From Escherichia coli 042 (GTDB lineage Bacteria; Pseudomonadota; Gammaproteobacteria; Enterobacterales; Enterobacteriaceae), in the NCBI RefSeq assembly GCF_000027125.1, contig NC_017626.1: DNA of 64,000 bases. The stretch is one strand, 5' to 3'. Position numbers and translations under genes: made by a program. Positions 32,559-51,542 of this stretch are shown here, one piece after another. The number at the start of each line of letters is the position of its first letter. The stretch's first letter is position 1. The notes below the pieces were generated by a model. It did no database searches. It was given only the letters and a program-made list of their open reading frames with translations, and had not been told where the DNA came from.

Positions 32559-33878
32559 TTAACTGCCCCAACGACTTTGCAGATAGCTGACCGCTTGTTG
32601 AGTCTGTGGCTTATTCAGATAGTCCTCACGGAACAAGATTGTGCCGCTAATTTCTGGCACGGCATCGTTAAGATCGAGCTGCTTTTTCAGTTCCGGTACG
32701 CCGCCGTTAATCATCCAGTCTGGCTCTATTTTTGAAGGTTCACCCACTTTATAGAAGGCGATACCGATATACAGGCGGGTCCTGGTCGGTTTAACGACAT
32801 CCGCCCACCATTTTGCCAAAACGTCATAACGTGCGGCACTCCGTGAGAACGGCCAGTAAATTTGGGGAGCAATGTAATCCAGCAATCCTTGTTCCACCCA
32901 TCGACGGGTGTCAGCGTAGGATTCGTCATAGGCTGCCGCGCCTCGGGTATCGGAACCGAGCGGATCGTGTGATCGGTTACGCCACACGCCTGCCGGGCTA
33001 ACGCCAAATTCGACTTCCGGCTTAATGCTTTTAATGGTGTGCGATACCTTCGCAATTAACTGCTGAGTATTGTTGCGCCGCCAGTCTGCTTTTGACGCAA
33101 ATGCGCCTCCGTATTTGCGGTACGTTTCGTTATCATTTAGCCGTGAACCCGGTGACTCAGTATAGAAATAGTCGTCAAACTGCACGCCATCTACCGGATA
33201 GCGGGAAACCACTTCCGCGACTATTGATGTGATCCAGTCCTGAACTTCAGGGATGCCCGGGTCGAGGACAAAGCGATCGCCGGACGTTCTGATCCAGTCG
33301 CGGTGTTGCACATAGACGCTCGCTGGTTGTTGAGCCAGAGTGCTATTCAGTTCCCTGATAGTACCGGGCTTCGTATTAACCGATACGCGATAGGGGTTAA
33401 ACCATGCGTGTACTTTCATCCCACGCTTGTGGGCTTCGTCGAGCATGAATTGCAGCGGATCGTAACCTGGATTTTCACCAATCTTTCCGGTCATAAGATC
33501 GGACCACGGCAAAATTTTTGATGGCCACAGGGCGGTACCGTCCGGCTTGACCTGGAAAAAGACCGTGTTTATGCCGAGACGTTGCAGATGATCCAGTTTG
33601 TCGATCATCGCCTGTTGTTGTACACGGGCCCGGCTGGTGGGGTTACTAATGTTAACCGAGGAAACCGGTGGCCAGTCGAGGCGAGACACCGTGGCCAGCC
33701 AGATGCCACGCATCGGTTGTGACGATTGTTGCGTCGTGGCTGGTGGCTTTGAACCCGCTGGTGGTGTCACCATGGACTCTGGAGGCGTGTTTTTACAACT
33801 ACACAGTAAAAGTGCCAGTGCAACCAGTATCGCTGGTCTTCTAATCGCTAATTTCTCGTTTCGGGAGCAGATATCCAT
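32559..33878 (-). CDS. yddW: Putative glycoside-hydrolase-like lipoprotein
   Basis: 439 aa with lipoprotein signal MDICSRNEKLAIRRPAILVALALLLCSCKN. Confidence 0.85.
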   Translation of the reverse strand: MDICSRNEKLAIRRPAILVALALLLCSCKNTPPESMVTPPAGSKPPATTQQSSQPMRGIWLATVSRLDWPPVSSVNISNPTSRARVQQQAMIDKLDHLQRLGINTVFFQVKPDGTALWPSKILPWSDLMTGKIGENPGYDPLQFMLDEAHKRGMKVHAWFNPYRVSVNTKPGTIRELNSTLAQQPASVYVQHRDWIRTSGDRFVLDPGIPEVQDWITSIVAEVVSRYPVDGVQFDDYFYTESPGSRLNDNETYRKYGGAFASKADWRRNNTQQLIAKVSHTIKSIKPEVEFGVSPAGVWRNRSHDPLGSDTRGAAAYDESYADTRRWVEQGLLDYIAPQIYWPFSRSAARYDVLAKWWADVVKPTRTRLYIGIAFYKVGEPSKIEPDWMINGGVPELKKQLDLNDAVPEISGTILFREDYLNKPQTQQAVSYLQSRWGS

Positions 33879-34008
33879 ATGTGCTGGTTTCCGGTAAACA
33901 GATGTGCGCTCATTCTCGTACTTATCCCGGTTAAGTCAATACGACAGCAAGCACGAAAAAGGGAGCGATGAATTATCGCTCCCTTATCTTATAACCATTC
34001 AGACATGG

Positions 34009-35544
34009 TTAGTGTTTCTTGTCATTCATCACAATATAGTGTGGTGAACGTGCACGCGGGTGCAGGAAGAAGTGACCTTTTGGTGCGTTCTGACTGTTGA
34101 TTGGCTCCAGAGTGACGCCGGTATTCCCTTTGCCTTTACGATCATGAACAGCATAGAGAATAAAGGGCAGGGCAAGTACCACCAGGAAACTAACGACCAG
34201 TAATTCAACATACATATCGGTAGAGTCACCCTGGATGTTATCCGGCGGCAGGAAGGAAACAATAAACGCCATAATTGAAGTCAGCAGACCGACAACAGCC
34301 ACGACCAGTTTCACCCCTTTACCACCAGGGATATTAAATGTGCGTTTTAAGTCAGGATGTTTAAGAACCAACACAATGTAGCCAATAAACAGCATGAAAT
34401 AAGCACACAGATAAATCACCACCGTCAGCGCCAGTGCGATCAGGAAGGACATGTTGTTACCGCCACCGGTATTGGTGAGGATGATCAACGCGATAGAAGT
34501 AATCACCAGCTGCGAAATGACCAGCGTTACCGGTACGCCATTTTTGTTCATTTTAGCGAATGCTGCTGGCAGCAGGTTTTTCTGCGCTGTGACATACATC
34601 CCGCGAGAAGGACCAACAATCCAGGAGGCGATTTCCGCCAGAACACCCAGCAACAGCAGTGCGGAGATCACGCGAACCGTCCACTCAATTTCCGGTGCCA
34701 CATGGGACATCAGAACGGTAAAGGTTTGCATTACACCTGCGGAGAGGTTGATTTCATTACCCGGAATGACCATCGCAATAGACAAACCGCCAACAGAGCT
34801 TAAGCAGATTGCCGCCACCATCAGCAGTAACATAGCCAGTGGATAGTCGCGCCCTGGATTGCTCATTTCATTGACGTGGGTTGCGGAAGCTTCAACGCCC
34901 ATATAACTCAAAATGAAGGCAACAAATACAACCAGGGTGCCCACTTTAGAGAAGTCAGGGAAGAAGGTCTTCGAATCCATTTCGATAGCAACGGGGGCAC
35001 CGGAGTGCAGATAAATAGCCGCTAATGCGATCAAAATAAATGCAGGTAACAGGATACCGGCGAAGAAGCCAACTTTAGCAATTCGCGCCGTGTATTTCGT
35101 GCCACCAAACTGCGTTAATGCCAGCGCCCAAAGAATGATGAGTGCTGCAATAGTTTTGGTAATGGGGTCTTCATTCAGCGCTGGCCATTTCAGGATGTAG
35201 GAGAGTGCCCCTAACACGAAATAGAGCATCGGAATAAAACCAATGGCGATTTGCAGATAGCCAAATGAGATCGCTGCAAATCCCCACCTCGGCCCCAGAG
35301 TATTTGATACCCAGGCGAAGACACCACCTTCTTCCCAGCCGTCGACGGTGGCCATTTCCGCAGCACAAAGTCCCACGGGAATAAACCATAAAATCCCGCC
35401 TAATAGCAGGAAGAAGACTAATGAAAAGCCCGATGTTGCGAAGGTAGGGTATTCATAAACAGCCATTACCATCGATGCCGTTATGGCAAAGAATCCGAGT
35501 AATGTGAGCTGCTTAGCTTTACCTGTCTGTACTGATGTAGCCAT
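34009..35544 (-). CDS. gadC: Glutamate:GABA antiporter (APC family)
   Basis: 511-aa polytopic membrane protein immediately downstream of gadB. Confidence 0.92.
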
Positions 35545-35653
35545 ATTATCCCCCTAAAACGGTATTCCTGTCGGAACCGCACCTGTTTTGTTCTGAAGCG
35601 TATTCAGAACAATATTTTCCGTTGCTAATGCCAGTGAACAGACTTTGGAAATT

Positions 35654-35679
35654 GTCCCGAAACGGGTTCGTTTCGGGAC
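35654..35679 (-). other. Intercistronic hairpin between gadB and gadC
   Basis: GTCCCGAAACG-GGTT-CGTTTCGGGAC, perfect 11-bp stem 20 nt after the gadB stop; no U-tract. Confidence 0.5.
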
Positions 35680-35699
35680 ACCGTTACCGTTAAACGTTA

Positions 35700-37100
35700 T
35701 CAGGTATGTTTAAAGCTGTTCTGCTGGGCAATACCCTGCAGTTTCGGGTGGTCGCTGAGATATTTCAGGGAGGCTTTGTAGTCTTCCAGCAACAGTTCAG
35801 CAAAGTCCATTTCGAAGCCGCGACGACACATAATGCGCATCACCACGATGTCGGTGGCTTCACCGCCAAGAGTGAAGGCCGGAACCTGCCAGCCGCGCAG
35901 ACGCAGACGTTCAGAGAGGTCGTACAGGGTGTATCCCGGATCTTCACCATCTTTCAGTTTGAAGCAAACCGCCGGGATGCCTTCGTCCGGGCGACCGGTA
36001 CAGATGAACTCATACGGCCCCAGTTTGGCGATTTCATCCGCCAGATAAGCGGCAACCTGGTAAGAGGCGTTCTGTACTTTGGTATAGCCTTCACGACCGA
36101 GGCGCAGGAATTCATAGTACTGTGCAATTACCTGACCCGCCGGGCGGGAGAAGTTGATGGCGAAAGTCCCAATCTGACCACCGAGGTAGTCAACGTTGAA
36201 CACCAGTTCCTGCGGCAGCGCTTCTTCATCACGCCAGATAACCCAGCCGCAGCCCAGCGGAGCCAGACCGAATTTATGGCCTGAAGCACTGATCGATTTC
36301 ACACGCGGCAGGCGGAAGTCCCAGACGATATCCGGGGCGACGAACGGTGCCAGGAAGCCACCGCTGGCGGCGTCGATGTGCATGTCGATGTCGATACCGG
36401 TGTCGGCCTGGAATTTATCCAGCGCATCGTGCAGCGGTTGCGGGAACTCATAGTTACCGGTGTAGGTCACGCCGAAAGTCGGCACCACGCCGATGGTGTT
36501 TTCGTCGCAGGCTTCAATCATGCGTTTCGGGTCCATAAACAACTGACCGGGGCGCATAGGGATCTCACGCAGCTCCACATCCCAGTAGCGGGCGAATTTA
36601 TGCCAGCAGATTTGCACCGGACCGCACACCAGGTTTGGTTTATCCGTTGGTTTGCCTGCAGCTTCCATACGCTTGCGCCAACGCCATTTCATCGCCATCC
36701 CGCCGAGCATACAGGCCTCGGAAGAACCAATGGTGTTGGTGCCAACGGCCTGACCATTTTTCGGCGCAGGCGCATGCCACAGATCGGCAACCATGTTTAC
36801 GCAACGCAGGTCGATGGCTGCAGATTGCGGATATTCTTCTTTGTCGATCCAGTTTTTGTTAATGGATAAATCCATCAACTTGTGGACATTTTCGTCGTCC
36901 CAGGTCTGGCAGAAAGTGGCCAGGTTCTGACGAGCGTTGCCATCAAGATATAATTCGTCATTGATAATCTGAAATGCGACATCGTCGCGCATTTCGTGCA
37001 GCGGAAAACGTTTTGATTCTGCGATAGTGGAAATAGACTTCGCACCAAAACGTGAATCGAGTAGTTCCGACCTTAAATCCGTTACTAGCTTCTTATCCAT
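35700..37100 (-). CDS. gadB: Glutamate decarboxylase (PLP-dependent)
   Basis: Start moved to ATG 37098-37100 ([24 protein letters not shown]) with AAGGAG RBS; 466 aa. Confidence 0.93.
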
Positions 37101-37179
37101 TTTAAACTCCTTAAAATGATTGGATCGCATTAAAAAAGTAGGATTTATCGATAAAGTAAGCAAGTGCAAAGGACTCGTG

Positions 37180-37199
37180 TTTAAATAACAAAATCCTAA
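37180..37199 (-). promoter_or_regulatory. GAD box (GadE-type binding site) in the gadB promoter
   Basis: Minus strand reads TTAGGATTTTGTTATTTAAA, the 20-bp GAD box, about 80 bp upstream of the gadB ATG in an AT-rich region. Confidence 0.6.
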
Positions 37200-37461
37200 T
37201 GTTATTTATCGTGAGATATTATGCGAATAATGTTTTTTCATTGAAAATCAATACATTATTGAATTATTGGGTGGTAGCAAGGTGTTTTGTGTTGTTATTT
37301 TTATGCACTTTCTACGCCTCCTGAATTATCACGTAAAAATCAGACCTTAAAATATCACTATTAGTACTTGGTTATTATTTTGAACGCATTTATAAAATTA
37401 TTACATAAAAATAGCGAATATTGATAAAATCCCCGCCAACGATGTGTTGACGGGGCTGTTA

Positions 37462-40245
37462 TTATTTTGGCAATAATACTCCGGTATAGGTATTCACCGG
37501 ATGAGAAAGATATTGTTTAACGGCAGTGTTAACATTCTCTACCGTCATTTGTTTCAATAATTGCTCCTGCTCAGTCCATGCTGCAGGATCGTCATATTGA
37601 ATAAGACTATTTACAATGGTGTTCGCTAATTGTTGAACGCTACGCTGTTGGATATCGAGGCTGCGCTGAACGTTTTGCTGGTATTCGTTCAGTTCTTGCT
37701 CACTGATCCCTTTAGCCAGACGCTTAACCATCACTTCATTCGCTAACGTTAACAGTTCATCATGTCGTTCCGGTTGACAAGTAAAAGCCAGCAAATGACT
37801 GATATCTTTGGCCTGAGGATCAACCGAGAGGCGAGAAGAAACGCTGTATGCCCCAGAGGCCTGTTCACGAATATTAACGCGTAGATCTTTTGCCAGTGCG
37901 ACGTTAAAAGCATCGAGCGCCATACGCGTCTCCAGATTAACCGGTGTCCGGGAATCATAACGCTTCCACTGTGAAACCTGTGCCACAGGTTCATTTTGTT
38001 CTTTTACAGTAACCGATGCGTTGTCCGTCGCGCGAGTTAATGGTTTACCTGCGGCTAATGGCGAATCAGAGTGTTTGATTGATCCTAAGTAAAGCGTAAT
38101 TAACGGCAGGAGTTTGTCTTCTGCGACATTACCGACAATGACAAACGTGATATCCGCTGGAGATGAAAACAACTGGCGATCGGCAGCCAGCGCATCTGCG
38201 GCAGTAAACTGTGCAATCTGATTTTCTTGCAGTAATTTCGTGCGGTCATCAGCATAGCGCGTCTCATACATCTGCTGGGCGAATTTCTCCGCTGGACGCT
38301 GGTCGAGCGTTTTCAACGCCTGAATTTGAGCATTTTGTAGCGATGCCCAAATATTATCGTTAATCGTGCTGTGGGTGATTCGCTGGTTAATCAACTGGAA
38401 ACCAGGTTCAGGGTTATTAGTCCGCGCGCTAACAGAGAGCAATGTATTCATGCCACTGACTTTACTGCTCAAGGTTACCGAGTTTTCCGCACTCCAGCGT
38501 TTCAGGCTGGAAGAGGAGAGTTCACCAACGCCGCTTCCGCTTACTGCTTTATTTGCCAGCGCGATAAGTGATTTTTGCTGCGCAGGGAAACTTAAATCGC
38601 CTTTATAAGATACGGCAGTAATTTGTAGCTTTTGCTCTTCACCCGCGGATTTTGCCAGAATAACCCTGGCACCATTGGAAAGTGTTAATGATGTCAGATT
38701 CTCAGCCAGCGTTTCTTTGCTGCTAATTTCCGCCTGTGGGTCAGCGTCTACTGTTAACGATAAATTTCTGCCTGGGAAGATGTAAGCCGCCAGCTTTTTG
38801 TTGGCGTACTCTTTTTCCAGCGCCAGGATAGCCGCAGGAGACAATGCTTTTTTGGCAGCAACCTCATTGTTTACCATTTGCTCCCAAAATGCATCCTGGT
38901 TCTTTCTTAACTGCTGCCATTTTTCCGCCAGACTTTGCACGGTAATTTGCTGCCACAGACGTTTCGAAAGTTGATATGTCTCTTCCGGCGACAAGAACGG
39001 CGTATTATTTAATGAGCTGGATGCCAGGCGACTGGTCAGCATACGTAAATCACGTTCAGCTTGCTGATCAACCGCATTTTTCAGCCAGGTGAGGCGGGTA
39101 GATTTGACATCATCGAGTTCTTCAGCAGAAAAACCATGCTGATCAATAGTTGCCAACTCTGCCATTAATGCATTCGCAGCATCCTGCATATTATCGTCTC
39201 GTGCATTTACACGGAAAAACAGCGACTGATAATCGGGTGCAATTTTAACGCTGCGCGCAGTGCCGCCAGAAATAGTCTTCAACTCGCCCGACTGTATGCG
39301 TTCCTGCAGACGCTGATTGAACAGCTGAACCAACATGCTCCATTCAGCTTGTTCGATAAAGCTTTGCTCATCGCTCACTTGCACCATTGGCAGGCGATAA
39401 TAGAGTGCGATGCCGTTCACCCGGTTTTCTTTATCATTAATGATATTAAAGCGCAGGTGGTTTTCGGCTTTTGTCGGCCAGACGCGATTTTCAGCTGCTT
39501 TGTTAGCCGGAAGCTTACTTAAATTATCCTTAATCAGCGCCAGCGCTTCTTTACTGTCGATATCGCCGACCACGATAAAGGTCATATTATTTGGTTGATA
39601 CCAGCGTTGATAAAATTGGCGCAATTGTGCCGGTGTGACCGTAGCGACAGTATCCATCACGCCGATAGGTTCACGGTCTAAATTACGGGTATTTGCCAGC
39701 AGGAAAGGGCGGCGCGCCTGAGAGGTGCGCCATTTCGCATCCTGATGGGCACGCCATTCCTCAGTAATTACGCCGCGTTCAGCGTCTACTTCGAGTTTTT
39801 CAAAGCTTGCGGCATTACTCCATTCACTAAAGATTGCCATCACTTGTTGCAGATTTTGTTTCTGCGTAGTCGGCAAACTCACCTGATACACCGTTTCGTC
39901 ATAGCTGGTATAGGCATTAACATCGCGACCAAAACGCAGGCCCATTGACTCAAATGTTTCGATGACTTTATTACCCGGCCATGTTTTTGTGCCGTTAAAC
40001 ATCATATGTTCTACAAAATGAGCCACGCCGCGCTCATTGTCCTCTTCCTGCAATGAACCGGTATGAATTTGCAGCCATAAATTTACCTGATCCTTTGGTT
40101 GAGCATGCGGATAAATCATATATCGCAAGCCATTGTCCAGTTGCCCGGTAATTAACTTTTCATCCTGCGGTAAGGCGGCGGCAATCAGTCGCCCGGGGAG
40201 CAACAGAGTTGCCACTAACGTCAGTAAGAAACAGAGGTTTCTCAT
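37462..40245 (-). CDS. pqqL: Periplasmic M16-family zinc protease
   Basis: Start at ATG 40243-40245 (MRNLCFLLTLVATLLLPGRLIAA, signal peptide) with GGAGA RBS; HFVEHMMF inverzincin motif (HxxEH). Confidence 0.9.
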   Translation of the reverse strand: MRNLCFLLTLVATLLLPGRLIAAALPQDEKLITGQLDNGLRYMIYPHAQPKDQVNLWLQIHTGSLQEEDNERGVAHFVEHMMFNGTKTWPGNKVIETFESMGLRFGRDVNAYTSYDETVYQVSLPTTQKQNLQQVMAIFSEWSNAASFEKLEVDAERGVITEEWRAHQDAKWRTSQARRPFLLANTRNLDREPIGVMDTVATVTPAQLRQFYQRWYQPNNMTFIVVGDIDSKEALALIKDNLSKLPANKAAENRVWPTKAENHLRFNIINDKENRVNGIALYYRLPMVQVSDEQSFIEQAEWSMLVQLFNQRLQERIQSGELKTISGGTARSVKIAPDYQSLFFRVNARDDNMQDAANALMAELATIDQHGFSAEELDDVKSTRLTWLKNAVDQQAERDLRMLTSRLASSSLNNTPFLSPEETYQLSKRLWQQITVQSLAEKWQQLRKNQDAFWEQMVNNEVAAKKALSPAAILALEKEYANKKLAAYIFPGRNLSLTVDADPQAEISSKETLAENLTSLTLSNGARVILAKSAGEEQKLQITAVSYKGDLSFPAQQKSLIALANKAVSGSGVGELSSSSLKRWSAENSVTLSSKVSGMNTLLSVSARTNNPEPGFQLINQRITHSTINDNIWASLQNAQIQALKTLDQRPAEKFAQQMYETRYADDRTKLLQENQIAQFTAADALAADRQLFSSPADITFVIVGNVAEDKLLPLITLYLGSIKHSDSPLAAGKPLTRATDNASVTVKEQNEPVAQVSQWKRYDSRTPVNLETRMALDAFNVALAKDLRVNIREQASGAYSVSSRLSVDPQAKDISHLLAFTCQPERHDELLTLANEVMVKRLAKGISEQELNEYQQNVQRSLDIQQRSVQQLANTIVNSLIQYDDPAAWTEQEQLLKQMTVENVNTAVKQYLSHPVNTYTGVLLPK

Positions 40246-40301
40246 AATTATCTCCATGCGAAAACCGGGCAAATTTACCCGGTTAAGTAAAATCCGAACT
40301 A

Positions 40302-49142: not shown

Positions 49143-49262
49143 CGGAGGTATATATCTTATAACGAGCAGTTTAATTTAGCACATGTGAGTAAATTGCGCG
49201 ACAATGGTCAATGAGGAATTCTTCTGCTGTGCGGATGACAGCAGAAGAAATGAGGAGGCGAA

Positions 49263-51542
49263 TTAATTTGATGGTTCTAATTCAACCGGAATACTTTTAT
49301 AGCCAGGAATGCCACTTAATGGATCGTGGTTATCAAGTGTTAGCATGTGATTCGATTCTGGAAAATAGGTCACCAGTGAGCGGTCAGCCATAGGGTAAAT
49401 GACCACTTTTAATCTATCCATGCGGCGTGAGCTTCGCTTACCGTCTGGCGTAAGCGCAATAAGATTAACTCTTTCGCCGTTTTTTACACGGCAAATTTTA
49501 GCTTGTTTAGCACTCATAAAGACCACATCTCGTTGACCGAATACCCCTCGATAGCGATCATCCATACCATAAATCGTCGTGTTGTACTGATCGTGACTGC
49601 GTACTGTCGCCATGACTAGCTTACTGTTAAACGCTGAAGAGGGATCTTCTAACAGCCCTTTACTGGTAATGAAATTAGCCTTACCTGACGGCGTCATCCA
49701 GCGCCTTTCAGCAGCTGCATTTATCAGGTGAAAACCACCGGGATGACGGATGCGCTGGTTATAGTCGGCGAACTCTGGCAGCACAGCTTCAATGTCATTG
49801 CGAATGCGATCATAATCTTCCACCAGATACTCCCAGGCTACCACGCTCTGGGGTAGTGCAGCCTGCGCGATTCCCGCGACCACTGCACACTCTGATTTCA
49901 GCATTACACCGGCGGGTTTTAACACGCCACGCGAGGCATGAATCATCGACATTGAATCCTCAACGGTTACCGCCTGCGCACCACTTTTTTGCATGTCAAT
50001 CTCGCTACGTCCCAGAACCGGCAGAATATAGCTATGCTGTGCGGTCAGCAGATGAGAGCGGTTAAGCTTAGTGGCTACGTGTACCGCCAAATCTAATTGC
50101 GTTAACGGTACAGCGCTCGCTTCCCGATCTGGCATTGCCAGTGCAAAGTTGCCCCCCATGCAGATCAATGCTCGAGCCTGCCCCGTACATATTGCTTGCA
50201 TGCTGGCAATTGCAGCATGTCCAGGTGCATGAGGTGGGGTGAAACCATAGCGCTCACCCAGGCGAGCCAGAAACTCTGCAGACGGTTTCTCGGTGATACC
50301 GACGGTTCGGTCGCCCTGTACATTAGAGTGACCACGTAGTGGGCAGATACCTGCACCAGGCTTGCCAATGTTACCTTTCATCAACAGCAGATTGACCAGT
50401 TGCTGTACGTTTTGGGTACCATGTTCGTGCTGAGTGATCCCCATTCCGTAACAGATAATGGTGCGTTCGGCAGCGGCATATGCATCAGCCAGTTCGGCGA
50501 TTTGGGTCTGACTTAGTCCAGAAATACGTTCGATATCTTTCCACTCGGAATTGAGAACGTCACGGCGTAGCTCGTCAAAGCCGACGGTATGCGTTTGAAT
50601 AAATTCGTCATCCAGCAATGAGGGCCGACCTGCGGCGCTTGCAGCATCATCGCGCTCAATTAACAGGCGCATCATCCCCTTGAGCAACGCCATATCGCCA
50701 CCAATGCGCACGTTATAGTAGGCACTGGCCAACTGAGTCTCAGAGTTCGTCAGCATTTCAAACGGATTTTGCGGTGCGGTAAATCGCTCCAGGCCACGTT
50801 CCTGTAGAGGGTTGATGGCGATCATTTTCGCTCCCCGTTTCACTAAAGCGCGCAACGAAGTCAGCATGCGAGGGTGGTTTGTACCAGGGTTATGCCCAAT
50901 GCAAATGACTAAATCGCATTTCTCAAAGTCTTCCAGCAACACGGTGCCTTTACCCACACCGATACTCGCTGCCAAACCCACGCTGGTCGGTTCATGGCAC
51001 ATGTTGGAACAGTCGGGAAAGTTATTGCTCCCGTATTCACGGGCAAAAAGCTGATAAAGAAAGGCAGCTTCATTGGAAGTGCGCCCCGAAGTATAGAATT
51101 CAACCTGATTGGGATCACTATAGCTTTGAAGGCGTGCGCCTATTTCGTCGAAAGCTTGTTGCCAGCTTAATGGCTTGTAACAGTCGCTGACGGCATCATA
51201 TTTCAAAGGCTGAGTGAGACGCCCCGCAGCTTCAAGCTCGTGATCTCCCCAGGTAAGTAATGATTGAACCGTATTCTCAGCAAAGAAAGAGGCATTTACC
51301 TGCTTATCCGTGACTTCCCAGGCGATTGCTTTTGCGCCGTTTTCACAAATGTCGAATGACGCACTGTGCTTAGGATCTGGCCATGCACATCCAGGACAGT
51401 CAAAGCCCTCTGGCTTATTCATGTCAAACATGGCAATAACATCCTGGCGTATATCCATCTGCTTACGTACTGCATTCGCTACGGATTTAACAGCACCCCA
51501 ACCACCGGCAGCACCCTGGTAGGATTCAATTTTTTTCTTCAT
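49263..51542 (-). CDS. ydeP: Molybdopterin oxidoreductase family protein (FdhF-like), acid-resistance associated
   Basis: 759 aa, [20 protein letters not shown]; N-terminal Cys cluster (CPGCAW) and molybdopterin-binding domains. Confidence 0.9.

Follow-up and report, generated by a model that had tools for sequence, protein, structure and literature searches.

A conserved RNA hairpin at a mapped transcript end between gadB and gadC of Escherichia coli

The stretch of DNA analysed here (64,000 nucleotides of one strand of Escherichia coli 042, contig NC_017626.1; hereafter the window) contains the gadBC operon, the central part of the most powerful acid-resistance system of E. coli and Shigella. 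The two genes are encoded on the minus strand, with pqqL upstream (37462-40272) and digH downstream, and GadB in the window is 99.8% identical to the annotated K-12 protein, for whose gene the MG1655 coordinates were checked against NC_000913.3 (1570645-1572045). A segment of 401 bases around the intercistronic hairpin described below has a match with at least 95% identity in 5,405 of 5,426 complete E. coli genomes, and the annotation beneath this match is gadC and gadB; the gadB-gadC spacer itself is found in the same number of these genomes at the same threshold. The positions of the features considered in this paper are collected in Table 1.

Table 1. Features of the gadBC locus, in window coordinates
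Feature	Positions	Strand	Description
Operon intrinsic terminator	33959-33985	-	canonical; 11-bp stem, then UUUUU
gadC CDS	34009-35544	-	511 aa, glutamate/GABA antiporter; from the ORF list
gadB-gadC spacer	35545-35699	-	155 nt; gadC Shine-Dalgarno GGGGGA near the 3' end
Hairpin 2	35588-35612	-	perfect 10-bp stem, 5-nt loop, -10.9 kcal/mol
RNA 3' end	35649	-	MG1655 1570594 mapped to the window; 4 nt after hairpin 1, last U of AAUUU
Hairpin 1	35653-35680	-	perfect 12-bp stem, AACC mRNA loop, -20.7 kcal/mol predicted
gadB CDS	35700-37100	-	466 aa, glutamate decarboxylase B; from the ORF list
pqqL-gadB spacer, AT-rich	37101-37461	.	361 bp, 29.9% GC vs 47.7% in the window
gadB core promoter, inferred	37135-37163	-	putative -35 TTGCTT 37163-37158, 17-nt spacer, putative -10 TACTTT 37140-37135
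GAD box	37180-37199	-	20-bp GadE/RcsB activator site; exact match to TTAGGATTTTGTTATTTAAA

The original prediction placed an exact GAD box in a strongly AT-rich gadB promoter region of about 360 bp, and both parts of this description were confirmed. The sequence TTAGGATTTTGTTATTTAAA occurs once in the window with no mismatch, while shuffled sequences give 0.03 matches even if up to three mismatches are allowed, and the region upstream of gadB includes the 361 nt with the lowest GC content anywhere in the window (27.7%, start at 37070). The same 20-mer has been given as a characterised GadE site (Seo et al., PMC4918353). Castanie-Cornet et al. (PMC2887963) report that 16 bp separate the GAD box from the -35 element downstream of it, that the centre of the box is 63 bp upstream of the start site, and that the box is bound by the GadE/RcsB heterodimer, which is needed for activation; for gadBC its position has been given as -62.5 (PMC4918353). 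In the window the box is separated by 16 nt from the putative -35 hexamer, and with the start site that we predict from the sequence its geometry agrees with both accounts. Similarly, the -35 and -10 hexamers and their spacing are identical to those upstream of MG1655 gadA. Comparison with the published gadA and gadBC promoters (Castanie-Cornet and Foster 2001; PMC2887963; PMC4918353) revealed the same 20-mer, the same spacing to -35 and the gadA hexamers, and no difference. The GAD box and the AT-rich region are the known GadE/RcsB-activated and H-NS-silenced gadB promoter, which drives both genes. The identity of the locus, the GAD box and the promoter were read correctly from the start, and all three were already known.

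The element of main interest is a hairpin-forming palindrome between the two genes (hairpin 1), described at first as a perfect 11-bp stem with a GGTT loop and no U-tract. Its arms (35653-35664 and 35669-35680) are complementary at 12 of 12 positions with 4 nt between them; the stem is indeed perfect, and an additional outer U-A pair extends it from 11 to 12 bp. GGTT is present on the plus strand, but because gadBC is transcribed from the minus strand the loop of the RNA is AACC, and the hairpin reads UGUCCCGAAACG-AACC-CGUUUCGGGACA, followed by AUUUCCAAAG. The base of the stem is GC-rich (GUCCCG/CGGGAC) and starts 20 nt past the gadB stop codon, a distance that, as estimated from ribosome size, a terminating ribosome would just fail to cover. 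The lack of a U-tract had been fairly stated: the tail AAUUUCCA (AAUUUCC) has three U in eight positions, and its score of -2.2 to -2.7 compares with -4.8 for the gadC terminator and -6.1 for gadY. Perfect hairpins of at least 12 bp with a loop of 3-8 nt number three in the window, against 0.01 expected from dinucleotide shuffles; this excess is not due to chance, but hairpins of this kind are a normal feature of bacterial gene ends.

Several known classes of element were considered for hairpin 1. The region is present in one copy per genome (5,407 genomes) and therefore does not represent a REP-like repeat, so that a REP- or BIME-type repeated extragenic palindrome is ruled out. A site for RNase III, which needs roughly 20 bp, is likewise ruled out, since the 12-bp stem is too short. 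Alternative pairing of the 3' arm with CCCGAAAC inside gadB (35741-35748) was rejected, as an 8-mer match within 250 nt is no more than chance would give. Rfam gave no match in 35545-35700 even at E values up to 10, in a permissive scan of 33500-38000; the same database has weak matches at the gadC terminator, far under the gathering scores. We found no description of hairpin 1 in the searchable literature, older papers in subscription journals lying outside that search.

Transcript ends have been mapped at this site in MG1655. The Term-seq data of Adams et al. 2021 (PMC7815308; supplementary file 1, sheet M63 glucose OD 0.4) list a 3' end at 1570594 on the minus strand, supported by 33,816.8 reads, with class 'orphan' and no gene named, and the flanking sequence listed for this end is exactly hairpin 1. 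The label 'orphan' arises because the end lies 51 nt past the gadB stop codon, 1 nt over the 50-nt limit that the paper sets for 'primary' ends (PMC7815308). In the same sheet the end at the gadC terminator (1568900) has 70,553 reads, so that roughly one third of the detected gadBC 3' ends are at hairpin 1 (33,817 vs 70,553 reads); each of the two is listed in one growth condition only, M63 OD 0.4. To judge how usual such an end is, we used a slice of 81 rows of this sheet, in which 62 ends lie at most 9 nt from a hairpin; 37 of these 62 have U-poor tails, with +4 nt as the commonest distance, and the hairpin 1 end therefore belongs to a very common class. The distance from stem to end, tried as a means of telling termination from trimming, was uninformative, with overlapping classes in the same slice (mean 4.5 nt for U-rich and 3.2 nt for U-poor tails).

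The amounts of RNA on either side of the hairpin appear to be uneven. In wild-type cells under acid stress gadB reaches 2532 FPKM and gadC 1189 (Seo et al., PMC4918353), a ratio of 2.1, in which the gadB value may be inflated by reads from gadA (~98% identical). The Term-seq ends imply an excess of gadB over gadC of about 1.5-fold. Coverage steps down across the gadB-gadC junction, with the caveat of gadA cross-mapping that applies to FPKM. On deletion of gadE the values are 29 for gadB and 21 for gadC (PMC4918353), i.e. gadC RNA drops about 58-fold without GadE, like gadB. This joint collapse means that gadC lacks a strong promoter of its own and relies on that of gadB. An internal gadC promoter was also rejected on the ground that the spacer has a single consensus match, which extends over the gadC start codon.

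Two explanations of the end at hairpin 1 have to be weighed above all others, the first being that transcription stops there. Hairpin 1 could be a leaky, non-canonical intrinsic terminator, i.e. an internal attenuator at which polymerase stops at the UUU in some rounds and otherwise reads on into gadC. We regard this as a possible but less probable account. The strong stem with its GC-rich base and predicted energy of -20.7 kcal/mol speaks for it, as do the exact coincidence of the 3' end with the last base of AAUUU, the borderline tail score obtained with the 12-bp stem (-2.7), and the 264 internal terminators with partial readthrough known from E. coli operons (Conway 2014, PMC4161252). Yet hairpin 1 combines the GC-rich stem-loop of an intrinsic terminator with a tail that is not a U-rich tract, having three U among the first 8 nt beyond the stem, and an upstream A-tract is absent. 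A consensus terminator scan moreover missed hairpin 1, yet called the terminators of gadC and pqqL. The location of the 35649 end, on the final U of a run of three and behind a stem with a GC-rich base, is also compatible with weak intrinsic termination.

The evolution of the spacer bears on this question. Outside E. coli a homologous spacer was found in Escherichia only; a genome scan contributed four Escherichia spacers to the comparison, and a metagenome scan, biased to stem variants, two more. Among E. coli copies of hairpin 1 variation is confined to the loop and the apical pair. In E. albertii, by contrast, there are nine substitutions in the 24 stem positions and a 2-nt insertion in the loop, and the hairpin still folds at -20.6 kcal/mol, compared with -20.7 in the window. 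When nine random substitutions were placed in the stem, a folding energy of -18 or lower was kept in 0.1% of 20,000 simulations. Three pairs have changed on both sides in E. albertii, a number reached in 33 of 500 shuffles, and the covariation comes essentially from one lineage. In strain E69 and in two metagenome contigs, A-to-G or C-to-U changes turn pairs into G.U on the mRNA strand and into C.A on the other strand; such sense-strand wobble changes occur in E69, in E. albertii and in one metagenome locus (L089). Since G.U is a valid pair on the mRNA strand only, they argue for a structure at the level of RNA and on the sense strand. The tails of the relatives, on the other hand, have lost U residues (AAAUUCC in E69, score -1.8; AAACUCC in E. 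albertii, score -1.6). That the hairpin persists although the U residues disappear suggests selection on the hairpin and not on a whole terminator, and this counts against leaky termination.

Hairpin 1 shares its spacer with a second palindrome (hairpin 2), missed at first reading, and the entire 155-nt spacer folds at z = -4.0 relative to shuffles. Hairpin 2 is weaker in the relatives (-5.5 kcal/mol in E. albertii and -6.6 in strain E69), and its loss in E. albertii is what random substitutions would give in simulation. From these comparisons, which cover few lineages, the stability of hairpin 1 looks selected and that of hairpin 2 does not.

This difference is also what weighs against the view that hairpin 1 is inert in regulation, a relic of a former gadB terminator left when gadB was joined to a gadC of other ancestry, with the 3' end as a harmless decay intermediate. 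Here, hairpin 2 would show how neutral sequence decays, while the stability of hairpin 1 has survived nine substitutions in E. albertii against the odds given above. Some observations would nevertheless fit a relic. The operon looks mosaic, GadB being 80-89% identical in Hafnia, Yersinia and Serratia while the neighbouring antiporter has only ~32% identity to E. coli GadC; gadA has its own post-stop hairpin, which is unrelated (15 bp, 19 nt past the stop codon, with a U tail that is likewise weak); in other genera the spacer between gadB and the antiporter gene is often short and unstructured; and U-poor hairpin ends are, as noted, very common in the Term-seq slice. We consider an inert relic unlikely. 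Of 30 gadB-antiporter spacers with a length of 40 nt or more in other genomes, six fold at z < -2, namely two from Escherichia and one each from Hafnia, Yersinia ruckeri, Serratia sp. Ag1 and Mesopusillimonas, and the short ones are mostly unstructured. As far as predicted folding goes, a structured spacer is thus a recurrent feature of gadBC operons but not a required part of them.

A palindrome may also act as DNA, for example as the site of a dimeric regulator or as an element of an internal gadC promoter. The perfect 12+12 inverted repeat would suit such a role, and so would the adjoining 24-nt block AAGTCTGTTCACTGGCATTAGCAA, situated just downstream of hairpin 1 on the mRNA, which is invariant in all eight aligned Escherichia spacers (including E. 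albertii, E69 and E1V33). The G.U wobbles, however, break the symmetry of the DNA and keep the pairing of the sense-strand RNA; the GadE, GadW and GadX ChIP-exo sites for gadBC found in a search of the supplement are all labelled upstream, with none in the spacer; and both the fall of gadC RNA in the gadE deletion and the position of the only promoter-like match, over the gadC start codon, run against an internal promoter. A function at the DNA level is accordingly the most improbable of the explanations, and we give it very little weight.

The reading that we favour over leaky termination is that hairpin 1 stands in the way of 3'-to-5' exonucleases, fixes and shields in this manner the 3' end of a gadB-only mRNA, and thereby modestly uncouples gadB from gadC; on balance we think it somewhat likelier true than false. 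Some transcripts would end 4 nt after hairpin 1 and constitute the gadB-only mRNA, and the rest would run through gadC to the terminator of the operon. PNPase and RNase II would trim transcripts that have been cleaved within the spacer or gadC, or that have terminated prematurely downstream, until hairpin 1 blocks them; because of this proposed block the gadB segment would outlast the gadC segment. Message levels would as a result be about 1.5- to 2-fold higher for the decarboxylase, which is soluble and abundant, than for the antiporter in the membrane. The cell requires much more GadB than GadC. We infer that trimming rather than termination is the source of the 35649 end, and that hairpin 1 is the cause of the imbalance between gadB and gadC RNA. 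A rut-like bias of C over G was not found in the 108 or 300 nt after hairpin 1 (C/G of 0.80 and 0.93, respectively), so that the spacer gives no positive indication of Rho loading.

The suggestion in the original prediction that the hairpin serves as an RNA stability or processing determinant that uncouples the levels of gadB and gadC thus stands in part. The 3' end 4 nt past the stem, the roughly twofold level of gadB RNA from the same promoter, the structure kept in E. albertii and the G.U pairs restricted to the sense strand are in its favour; the uncoupling is modest (about 1.5- to 2-fold), and weak intrinsic termination stays a rival.

A more elaborate arrangement would involve both hairpins. 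An endonuclease of the RNase E type might cut the single-stranded, AU-rich stretch between them, leaving a gadB half that ends in a protective 3' hairpin and a gadC half that starts with a 5'-terminal hairpin shielding it from 5'-end-dependent decay. A site resembling RN|WUU (AAAAU|AUUG) is located just 5' of hairpin 2. If this were true, the lifetimes of the gadB and gadC messages could be set independently, possibly by condition; we hold it to be rather doubtful, a shade more so than the inert relic. A small open reading frame in the spacer was looked for as well, and none is credible, the candidates being just 22-33 aa long and either GTG- or TTG-started or on the wrong strand.

Intercistronic hairpins that give segment-specific stability are known from the puf operon of Rhodobacter capsulatus, from the REP of E. 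coli malE-malF and from papB-papA. The gadBC operon has in common with these systems a stem-loop after the upstream cistron, an upstream segment that appears to be more abundant and an abundant soluble product encoded upstream of a membrane component; hairpin 1 differs in being single-copy, and not a REP, and in a presumed effect of only about 2-fold. In E. coli, stable stem-loops without U-rich tails have been found to set precise steady-state 3' ends and to shield the RNA from PNPase and RNase II (Dar and Sorek 2018, PMC6061677). Hairpin 1 shares with that class the stable hairpin, the U-poor tail and the precise in-vivo 3' end a few nucleotides downstream, whereas the members of the class are ends of Rho-dependent units with a C-over-G bias downstream, and hairpin 1 lies between co-transcribed genes and is followed by no such bias. 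With the internal partial-readthrough terminators (Conway 2014, PMC4161252) it shares a 3' end inside an operon and coverage that continues downstream, but it is without the U-tract that defines them, and its U residues are not conserved.

Taken together, hairpin 1 is a genuine, conserved RNA structure at a mapped transcript end, through which gadB message most likely comes to exceed gadC message by a modest margin. It is newly noted here, but belongs to a well-known and very common class and is an ordinary bacterial way to favour the message of a first gene. It would not change the understanding of operons, as protective hairpins without U-tracts and internal 3' ends are already widespread in E. 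coli. If the gadB:gadC ratio is set by a defined RNA element, knowledge of it would aid the reading of gad expression data and the engineering of strains that produce GABA.

The original prediction described one perfect hairpin between gadB and gadC and overlooked a second perfect one in the same spacer (hairpin 2; see the table). Hairpin 2 has lost some of its pairs, uncompensated, in both Escherichia strain E69 and E. albertii. On the plus strand our scan marked hairpin 2 as terminator-like, but no obvious transcript runs in that direction. A block of 24 nt shows no variation in any of the eight aligned Escherichia spacer sequences, that of E. albertii included, whereas sequence changes freely in the adjoining hairpin 1, the stem with a mapped RNA 3' end. 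The invariance of this block may, however, reflect nothing beyond the background identity of ~92%, and we suggest no function for it. Among the E. coli records bearing the spacer (window 35545-35702), 5 of 5,408 are annotated as plasmids, and a search with the same interval found no match at all in 19 of 5,426 E. coli genomes.

Hairpins and conserved block in the window and downstream of gadA in MG1655
Feature	Position	Strand	Location	Description
Hairpin 2	35588-35612		gadB-gadC spacer	perfect 10 bp, 5-nt loop, -10.9 kcal/mol
24-nt block	35621-35644		between hairpin 1 and hairpin 2	AAGUCUGUUCACUGGCAUUAGCAA
Terminator-like hairpin	37431-37455	minus	directly 3' of pqqL	10 pairs, then AUUUUAUC
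Hairpin	49219-49249	minus	just 3' of 759-aa ORF 49263-51542	perfect 12 bp, 7-nt loop
Hairpin	20812-20839	minus		perfect 12 bp, then UUGUUUUU
gadA hairpin	MG1655 3666100-3666180 region (L084)		19 nt past gadA stop codon	arms AACCGAATGCCCAGC / GCTGGGCATTCGGTT

The AT-rich region had been read entirely as the gadB promoter; the terminator-like hairpin that follows pqqL lies within it. Elsewhere in the window, the hairpin following the 759-aa ORF, which we take to be ydeP from its place in the K-12 gene order, has a U-poor tail (UUCCUCAU) and the same anatomy as hairpin 1. The remaining 12-bp hairpin matches in sequence an 'orphan' Term-seq end at MG1655 1555766, with 143,837 reads (Adams 2021, PMC7815308; M63, OD 0.4). 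Adams 2021 enters no Term-seq end at the gadA hairpin, whose 15-bp stem closes a loop of 13 nt and whose U tail is weak. This hairpin is unrelated to that of gadB; the homology between gadA and gadB stops at the stop codon.

Strong, unrelated hairpins that lack U tails were also observed in decarboxylase-antiporter spacers: in Yersinia ruckeri the stem has 14 bp (-25.6), and in Mesopusillimonas it has 17 bp (-31.9). In the same set of loci (L008, L079, L007, L019), the spacers of Hafnia and Serratia sp. Ag1 are likewise unusually structured (z below -2). The remaining Yersinia spacers are short and without structure.

Judged by sequence comparison, the gadBC operon itself looks mosaic. GadB identity is 80-89% in Hafnia, Yersinia and Serratia (gadB loci L007-L040 and L079), while the antiporter downstream shares only ~32% identity with E. 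coli GadC; the nearest GadC found (71%), in Mesopusillimonas faecipullorum, adjoins a GadB of 60% identity.
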